44,896 nucleotides of DNA from sequence record PQ436005.1. One strand, written 5' to 3'. Below, in pieces: positions 29,518 to 29,905 of the stretch; within the stretch, counting starts at the first letter, position 1; each line of letters starts with the position of its first letter. The stretch comes from Escherichia phage vB_Eco_K-02. Position numbers and translations under genes: made by a program. Below the pieces are notes generated by a model. That model was not told the DNA's origin and searched no databases. It was given only the letters and a program-made list of their open reading frames with translations.

Positions 29518-29905
29518 CGTTTCTACCCTCGAAAATAGCGTCTAAGCTCATGATGATGTCGGATTCGAACATCCCTATATTCTGGCCTGAAACGGTGCTG
29601 TACGCCACTAAATCTGACCATCGTAATTGCTCGCGCGGGTACATCTTGATGCCGTCGTCGTCCACTCGGCGGGTGAATTTAATTTCCCTGTACTTCTCAA
29701 ATGTGGTTAGTAGCTCAGGGGGGCATTCCGGCCCAGCGGCCTGCGTTGCATCCGGCGCGTCTTGCATAACCCCCATAGCAATTAGCGCGGCTTTATGCCC
29801 ATCGGCGATACTGTCAAATTCCCGCCGTTTGTGGCGGGTTATGAAGTTCCAACGGGCGAACTGGAGCAACGCGTCTACTTTTCCTGTAGCTGGTGCAGTT
29901 GTTCG
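29510..29905 (-). CDS. tail assembly chaperone, -1 frame extension (GT-like)
   Basis: ORF in the -1 frame opens at 29905, overlapping the last 10 codons of 29875..30291; A-rich slippery-like GGAAAAG before the 0-frame stop. Confidence 0.45.
   Translation of the reverse strand, partial: RTTAPATGKVDALLQFARWNFITRHKRREFDSIADGHKAALIAMGVMQDAPDATQAAGPECPPELLTTFEKYREIKFTRRVDDDGIKMYPREQLRWSDLVAYSTVSGQNIGMFESDIIMSLDAIFEGRNDG

Follow-up and report, generated by a model that had tools for sequence, protein, structure and literature searches.

A probable programmed −1 ribosomal frameshift in the tail assembly chaperone gene of Kagunavirus, at an A_AAG tetranucleotide conserved beside the stop codon

The described system closest to the locus considered here is lambda gpG/gpGT (Levin et al. 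1993; Xu et al. 2004; as recounted in PMC5009743), in which two overlapping open reading frames (ORFs) immediately precede the tape measure gene. The second lambda ORF lacks a credible start codon, and the pair gives a short chaperone and a longer fusion, the slippery site being the heptamer G_GGA_AAG. [quoted passage not shown] Of all such tetramers, A_AAG is the one most prone to −1 shifts in E. coli, since tRNA-Lys, the sole lysine tRNA of that organism, forms a weak pairing with AAG and a better one with AAA (PMC4066793; PMC5009743). In an E. coli reporter without a stimulator, the pooled Z_ZZN tetramers (A_AAG included) nevertheless shifted in 0.147% of cases, against 0.112% for constructs with no motif, a level close to background, whereas A_AAG combined with the IS3 pseudoknot reached 5.6% (PMC4066793). 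A different route is offered by the 'shifty stop' or 'hungry codon' (Weiss et al. 1987, via PMC5009743; dnaX and HIV-1 kinetics, PMC6771820), where a single P-site tRNA slips with the A site vacant and no downstream structure is required (PMC6771820). As a −1 mechanism this has been demonstrated in synthetic constructs or when aminoacyl-tRNA is limiting, and the stimulating effect of a slow A-site codon is better established for +1 than for −1 shifts (PMC6771820).

The window analysed here, which is the whole 44,896-nucleotide stretch of Escherichia phage vB_Eco_K-02 DNA (PQ436005.1), carries a gene pair of the lambda kind on its minus strand. Between 29400 and 30400 it matches, at 100% identity, Escherichia phage VB_EcoS-Golestan (Kagunavirus, Guernseyvirinae), and 304 related phage records were found for the same interval, chiefly from Escherichia Kagunavirus and Salmonella Jerseyvirus. 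The features on which the argument turns are these:

29875..30291, minus strand: tail assembly chaperone 'G' ORF, 138 aa, 15.9 kDa, the frame-0 product, with C-terminus ...HQLQEK followed by TAG
29878..29881, minus strand: A_AAG tetranucleotide, candidate shift site, formed by the last base of GAA and the Lys codon AAG
29878..29884, minus strand: heptamer G_GAA_AAG, one base off lambda G_GGA_AAG, its first codon varying in relatives
29875..29877, minus strand: frame-0 stop UAG, directly 3' of A_AAG
29875..29905, minus strand: overlap of 31 nt in which frame 0 and frame −1 are both open, bounded upstream by the −1 stop TAA at 29908..29906
29510..29878, minus strand: 'T' segment in the −1 frame, 122 codons (VDALLQFARW...EGRNDG) and TGA
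29867..29869, minus strand: TTG, 3 codons past the slip site and 12 nt downstream of an AGGA, where most GenBank records begin a separate CDS
27178..29517, minus strand: tape measure protein gene, 779 aa (phrog_1538, E 4e-206), context GAAACGATGGCTGATG

Frame 0 of G closes with CAT AAC GAA CAA CTG CAC CAG CTA CAG GAA AAG TAG, in which the Lys codon AAG occupies 29880..29878 on the minus strand. The sequence-only reading of this DNA, which had placed the opening of the −1 frame at 29905, ten codons before the G stop, and had noted a 3' end CAG GAA AAG TAG one base away from the lambda heptamer, is correct on both points when the minus strand is read. Across the junction the −1 frame runs GGA AAA GTA GAC GCG TTG..., and it ends at the TGA at 29512..29510 (minus strand), overlapping the ATG of the tape measure gene by 8 nt. 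The junction ...HQLQEK-VDALLQFARW... that had been derived for a slip on the Lys codon matches the sequence as written, and the predicted G-T fusion would have 260 aa and a mass of 29.8 kDa. The length of the overlap between the two frames differs widely between relatives and is constant at its 3' end only. Opposite the chaperone junction there is also an antisense ORF of 142 aa (29550..29978, plus strand), longer than the real 138-aa gene. This ORF is almost certainly spurious; a plain longest-ORF choice picks it over the true G, which is a caution for automated callers.

Both frames belong to recognised chaperone families. G matches Pfam PF08748 Phage_TAC_4 (32.5 bits against a gathering cut-off of 21.1) and also phrog_313, and in RefSeq the Golestan protein is labelled 'tail assembly chaperone'; the T segment matches Pfam PF23812 Phage_TAC_18 (67.1 bits against a cut-off of 27). 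The tail assembly chaperone profile phrog_15027, 259 positions long, is covered by G at positions 1–138 and by the −1 segment at 139–259, implying that fused products were already among the sequences from which this profile was built. Searches of the 260-aa fusion against solved structures and against NCBIfam gave no significant match.

Compared with the definition of G/GT given by Xu et al. 2004, the pair has the expected position, immediately upstream of the tape measure gene with all three genes on the minus strand, an overlapping second ORF without a conserved start of its own, and a conserved slippery sequence, here a tetramer. There are differences, however. Lambda uses the heptamer, whereas here it is the tetramer A_AAG that serves; the shift site abuts the frame-0 stop in every relative, unlike lambda; and the Pfam families set the present proteins apart, lambda G and T belonging to others. 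The tail tube-like gene (32898..34070, minus strand; phrog_290) lies upstream of G but, again unlike lambda, is separated from it by four genes on the opposite strand, so that the usual order of tube, chaperone and tape measure is interrupted. This four-gene block (30443..32869, plus strand) encodes a superinfection immunity (Imm-like) protein, a metallophosphoesterase/'DNA repair exonuclease', a polynucleotide kinase/phosphatase-like HAD protein and a dNMP kinase-like protein.

How well is the junction conserved? The comparative set comprised 95 loci, 27 of them found through the G protein (down to 43% identity) and 68 through alignment of the T segment (down to 37%), and base-by-base comparison of the junction used 21 representatives that are mutually less than 90% identical. 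Wherever the upstream ORF of the 95 loci reads through, its 3' end is A_AAG with TAG or TAA immediately after it, the exceptions being L092–L096 (T identity 37–39%), which have GCA_AAA_AAA+TAR, and the remote G relative L030, which has CTA_AAA_AAC+TGA. Apart from this L030 motif (A_AAA_AAC+TGA), the stop directly follows a Lys codon in every locus with a readable upstream ORF. In SS3e (L024/L046) the junction is the same, the first ORF being interrupted early. Comparison with related phages, which had been suggested as a check on the frameshift, thus finds the combination of A_AAG or A_AAA_AAA with a stop kept across the 95 loci, L030 having its own variant.

The most distant relatives, L092–L096 and L030, present a canonical A-rich heptamer right against the stop, and the stop-adjacent placement therefore extends beyond the A_AAG group. 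A different variant is seen in L086 (IMGVR_UViG_2974654489_000001), where the junction, just before position 1501, reads CAG GGA AAG TAG in place of the CAG GAA AAG TAG of its sister genomes. It is the single locus with the exact lambda heptamer G_GGA_AAG, one base from its sisters, and provides a natural variant for comparing the efficiencies of tetramer and heptamer.

Among the 21 representatives, the AAA at positions −4 to −2 never varies; a G follows it in 19 and an A in two, so that A_AAG is present in 19/21, the other two having A_AAA_AAA. The codon before Lys is variously GAA, GCA, TCA, GTA or AAA (Glu, Ala, Ser, Val or Lys), with GGA (Gly) in L086. Its third position, base −4, is A in all cases across those codon families, even though their A-ending members make up 15–55% of usage in the window (GCA 0.20, TCA 0.25, GTA 0.30, GGA 0.15). 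A third base that is always A, in a codon that itself varies, points to the nucleotide, rather than the amino acid, as the object of selection. The stop codon likewise has an invariant T and A in the 21 representatives: 16 have TAG, five TAA and none TGA, and TGA would likewise keep a Val codon in the T frame. UAG is thus the commonest junction stop (16/21), yet among the window's own ORFs it is the one used least (TGA 19, TAA 16 and TAG 3 of 38).

The motif as such proves nothing, since AAAGTAR is not enriched in the window (14 occurrences against 11.4 expected). In-frame A_AAG occurs at 0.0031 per codon, which corresponds to a chance of about 3% in an overlap of ten codons. As judged from these comparisons, the significance of A_AAG comes from its position together with its conservation. 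The reading frame itself changes at the same place. Codon-phase entropy peaks at frame-0 position 3 in every 30-nt block up to the stop, and at position 3 of the −1 frame in every block from the stop onward; homology to T in the relatives always begins at residue 1, a Val or Ile codon made of the last Lys base and the TA of the stop.

Could T instead be an independent gene? On this reading T would start at the TTG at 29869, either by Shine-Dalgarno (SD)-led initiation or by termination-reinitiation, giving a free 13.6-kDa protein and no fusion; the sequence-only reading had itself named this start as what might overturn the frameshift. It is the call made by most annotators, including RefSeq for Golestan, with 7/8 of the GenBank records examined starting a separate CDS at the TTG, and the Shashou paper reports 'no canonical slippery sequence'. 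The UAG, six bases upstream of the TTG, is near enough for reinitiation, and an AGGA, the sole SD-like sequence there, precedes the TTG; this AGGA is, however, 12 nt away, and TTG is a weak start. The TTG is replaced by CTG in every lineage outside Kagunavirus/Jerseyvirus. In many of these lineages T has no in-frame ATG, GTG or TTG before an internal Met at codon 34, which is invariant and for which no SD sequence is found at a working distance. T was aligned in sets of six and of 20 sequences. The first 30 or so T-frame codons are conserved, also where no start precedes codon 34, with W10, F21-D22-S23-I24, H28, A31 and L32 invariant in the six-sequence alignment, and codons 10–30 show a clear −1 frame periodicity. 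Codons 5–33 thus still behave as protein in lineages that could not begin there, which argues that they are translated, and the sole conserved entry to them is from the upstream frame. An independent gene also leaves unexplained why homology begins at the first −1 codon and why the A before the Lys codon, and the choice of AAG or AAA for Lys, are invariant across six codon families. The second ORF lies in the −1 frame, overlaps the end of G and has no conserved start codon and ribosome binding site of its own. We regard two wholly independent genes as very improbable, and the TTG at 29869 as probably merely Leu-4 of the T segment; some free T may still arise by initiation or termination-reinitiation in this clade.

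If the two frames are joined, the manner of joining must also be considered. The observation that G_GAA_AAG differs from the lambda site by one base stands; as a functional unit, however, the lambda-like heptamer does not, since its first codon varies among relatives and only A_AAG and the stop are conserved. A tandem slip of two tRNAs on G_GAA_AAG during translocation, in which the stop would play no part, would need tRNA-Glu to accept GGA through a middle G.U, this central mismatch being the only one. Its attractions are that near-identity to the lambda site, the exact G_GGA_AAG of L086, the A_AAA_AAA of the most distant relatives, and the XXYYYY-type motifs of the PRFect authors among annotated chaperone frameshifts. 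The site nevertheless departs from the canonical X_XXY_YYZ pattern, in which both P-site and A-site tRNAs re-pair, because tRNA-Glu would face GGA. Relatives with G_GCA_AAG, C_GCA_AAG, G_UCA_AAG or G_GUA_AAG allow no P-site re-pairing in the −1 frame. With GCA, TCA or GTA after G, C or A there is thus no acceptable −1 partner, and the site is kept all the same; nor is there a conserved downstream structure to drive a translocation-coupled shift. We therefore consider the tandem slip unlikely, and the likeness to the lambda heptamer appears to be incidental, the conserved unit being A_AAG with its adjacent UAG or UAA. The remaining alternative, that RNA polymerase adds or drops an A so that the fusion is translated from an edited mRNA, has in its favour that the shift site is an A-run and that L092–L096 carry eight A's in a row (GCAAAAAAATAR). 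In the window and in most relatives, however, the run is just three or four A's long (GGAAAAG, GCAAAG), much shorter than those known to support polymerase slippage, and what is conserved is not run length but a frame-specific A_AAG beside a stop. Such editing is hardly credible as the source of the fusion.

We conclude that a programmed −1 ribosomal frameshift very probably takes place at the 3' end of the Kagunavirus tail assembly chaperone gene and works like lambda G/GT. The proposal that such a shift joins the two chaperone ORFs has gained from each line of comparison, namely the conserved junction, the switch of frame in the entropy profile, the Pfam and PHROG families and the CTG found in place of the TTG outside the clade, and the existence of a fusion is strongly supported by this comparative evidence. 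Most ribosomes would terminate at the UAG and release the 138-aa G. A minority would slip back one base on A_AAG, with tRNA-Lys re-pairing from AAG to AAA, then read GUA (Val) and continue through the 122 codons to yield the 260-aa G-T fusion. Translation of the fusion would end just inside the tape measure gene, and T would be made only as its C-terminal part. By analogy with lambda, binding of the tape measure protein would fall to the G part and recruitment of the tail tube protein to the T part, and the frequency of the shift would then set the G:GT ratio. The anatomy of the locus, the family assignments and the comparative signature are shown directly, whereas the occurrence of the shift, its efficiency and any stimulation by the stop codon are inferred.

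What might stimulate the shift? The IS3, IS1222 and cdd sites rely on a downstream pseudoknot or an upstream SD-like stimulator, whereas here neither is conserved and only the stop is. In B. subtilis cdd the stimulator is an upstream SD-like element. At the present junction an element of this kind was considered and rejected, since in the 21 representatives nothing is conserved at −7 to −21, nor any GGAGG-like sequence upstream. The 106 nt that follow the site in the window do form a stable fold, with a minimum free energy of −38.3 kcal/mol and a z of −3.2, a stability reached by none of 200 shuffles. It is a long-range structure over roughly the first 100 nt of the T frame (29780..29877, minus strand), beginning at the stop codon and including the hairpin CCCGCC-ACAAAC-GGCGGG. 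The consensus fold of this region in 15 sequences is weak (−5.7 kcal/mol, covariation term −0.44). The fold of the window has a covariation of 0.096 against 0.092 in shuffles, a value reached by 166/500 of them, and it is broken in divergent relatives. A downstream RNA stimulator was therefore rejected as a conserved element: there is no covariation above that of shuffles, and the structure is lost in divergent relatives. Because it is not kept there, the stable fold is probably either a feature of this clade alone or a by-product of coding, and it may have a role within the clade. The junction thus differs from the stimulated −1 frameshift cassette, which has a structure 5–9 nt 3' of the slip site or an SD-like sequence 10–14 nt 5' of it. 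The absence of an evident RNA stimulator is a further likeness to lambda G/GT, for which none is known to have been described. A search of Rfam found no match to a frameshift element.

The sole Rfam hit was to the int-alpA RNA (RF02996), at 30316..30380 on the minus strand, in the 5' leader of the chaperone gene, 25–90 nt upstream of its start codon. At 36.6 bits against a gathering score of 35.8, this match lies just above threshold, and it spans the model from end to end, with nested hairpins followed by a U-rich tail. Sub-threshold matches (24.7–33.5 bits) occur at the same position in 5/6 of the relatives searched, down to 43% protein identity (L025:1414-1477, L008:1411-1475, L026:1411-1473, L020:1417-1461 and L023:1416-1460). 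A structured leader RNA of the chaperone/tape measure operon therefore seems, from these matches, to be conserved upstream of the chaperone; the int-alpA match is unrelated to the frameshift.

The sole conserved neighbour of A_AAG is thus the stop codon, and the conserved tetramer with its adjacent stop suggests that a single tRNA-Lys slips in the P site while the stop occupies the A site. The most likely route for the frameshift would accordingly be a one-tRNA slip in which peptidyl-tRNA-Lys sits on AAG and the A site holds a slowly decoded stop. Such a slip would need no downstream RNA structure, and the 'shifty stop' route described elsewhere fits the junction well, a natural stop being in this case the presumed A-site signal. 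It is quite possible, and we suggest it tentatively, that the −1 signal throughout the clade (Guernseyvirinae and distant metagenome relatives) consists of A_AAG and an adjacent frame-0 stop, nearly always UAG, with the stop acting as stimulator through a slip of this kind. The case for this role of the stop codon is weaker than that for the fusion, and the invariant adjacency could alternatively reflect a constraint on the C-terminus of G and not stimulation of the shift.

The idea of a joined product is not new to this phage group. Escherichia phage vB_EcoS_fFiEco03 (MT711524, QNO11663.1) has the same gene pair and the same junction, CAG GAA AAG TAG ACG CGT TG, and in its record the two are joined as a 'putative tail assembly chaperone frameshift product' of a length consistent with 138+122 aa. 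The record offers this purely as annotation and names neither a slip site nor a mechanism. The Golestan RefSeq record and six other relatives examined have two separate CDSs and no join. In most Kagunavirus/Jerseyvirus records the T frame appears as a separate TTG-initiated 'hypothetical protein' or as a second chaperone. The Golestan paper makes no mention of a frameshift, and in the literature on Kagunavirus/Jerseyvirus we found no experimental work on this frameshift or its fusion product. What is fairly new, to a mild degree, is a conserved, structure-free, stop-adjacent tetranucleotide site within a well-known kind of chaperone frameshift. Frameshift finders that look for heptamers only will miss sites of the A_AAG-stop class, and on the comparative evidence the Kagunavirus/Jerseyvirus records should carry a joined −1 frameshift CDS.

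Finally, A_AAG-UAR without a conserved RNA structure offers a natural test case for whether a stop in the A site suffices for useful −1 slippage by tRNA-Lys. If it does, these phages would possess a natural, conserved and structure-free −1 frameshift cassette of a type encountered so far mainly in synthetic constructs and under starvation, and the availability of release factor 1 would tune the ratio of G to GT.
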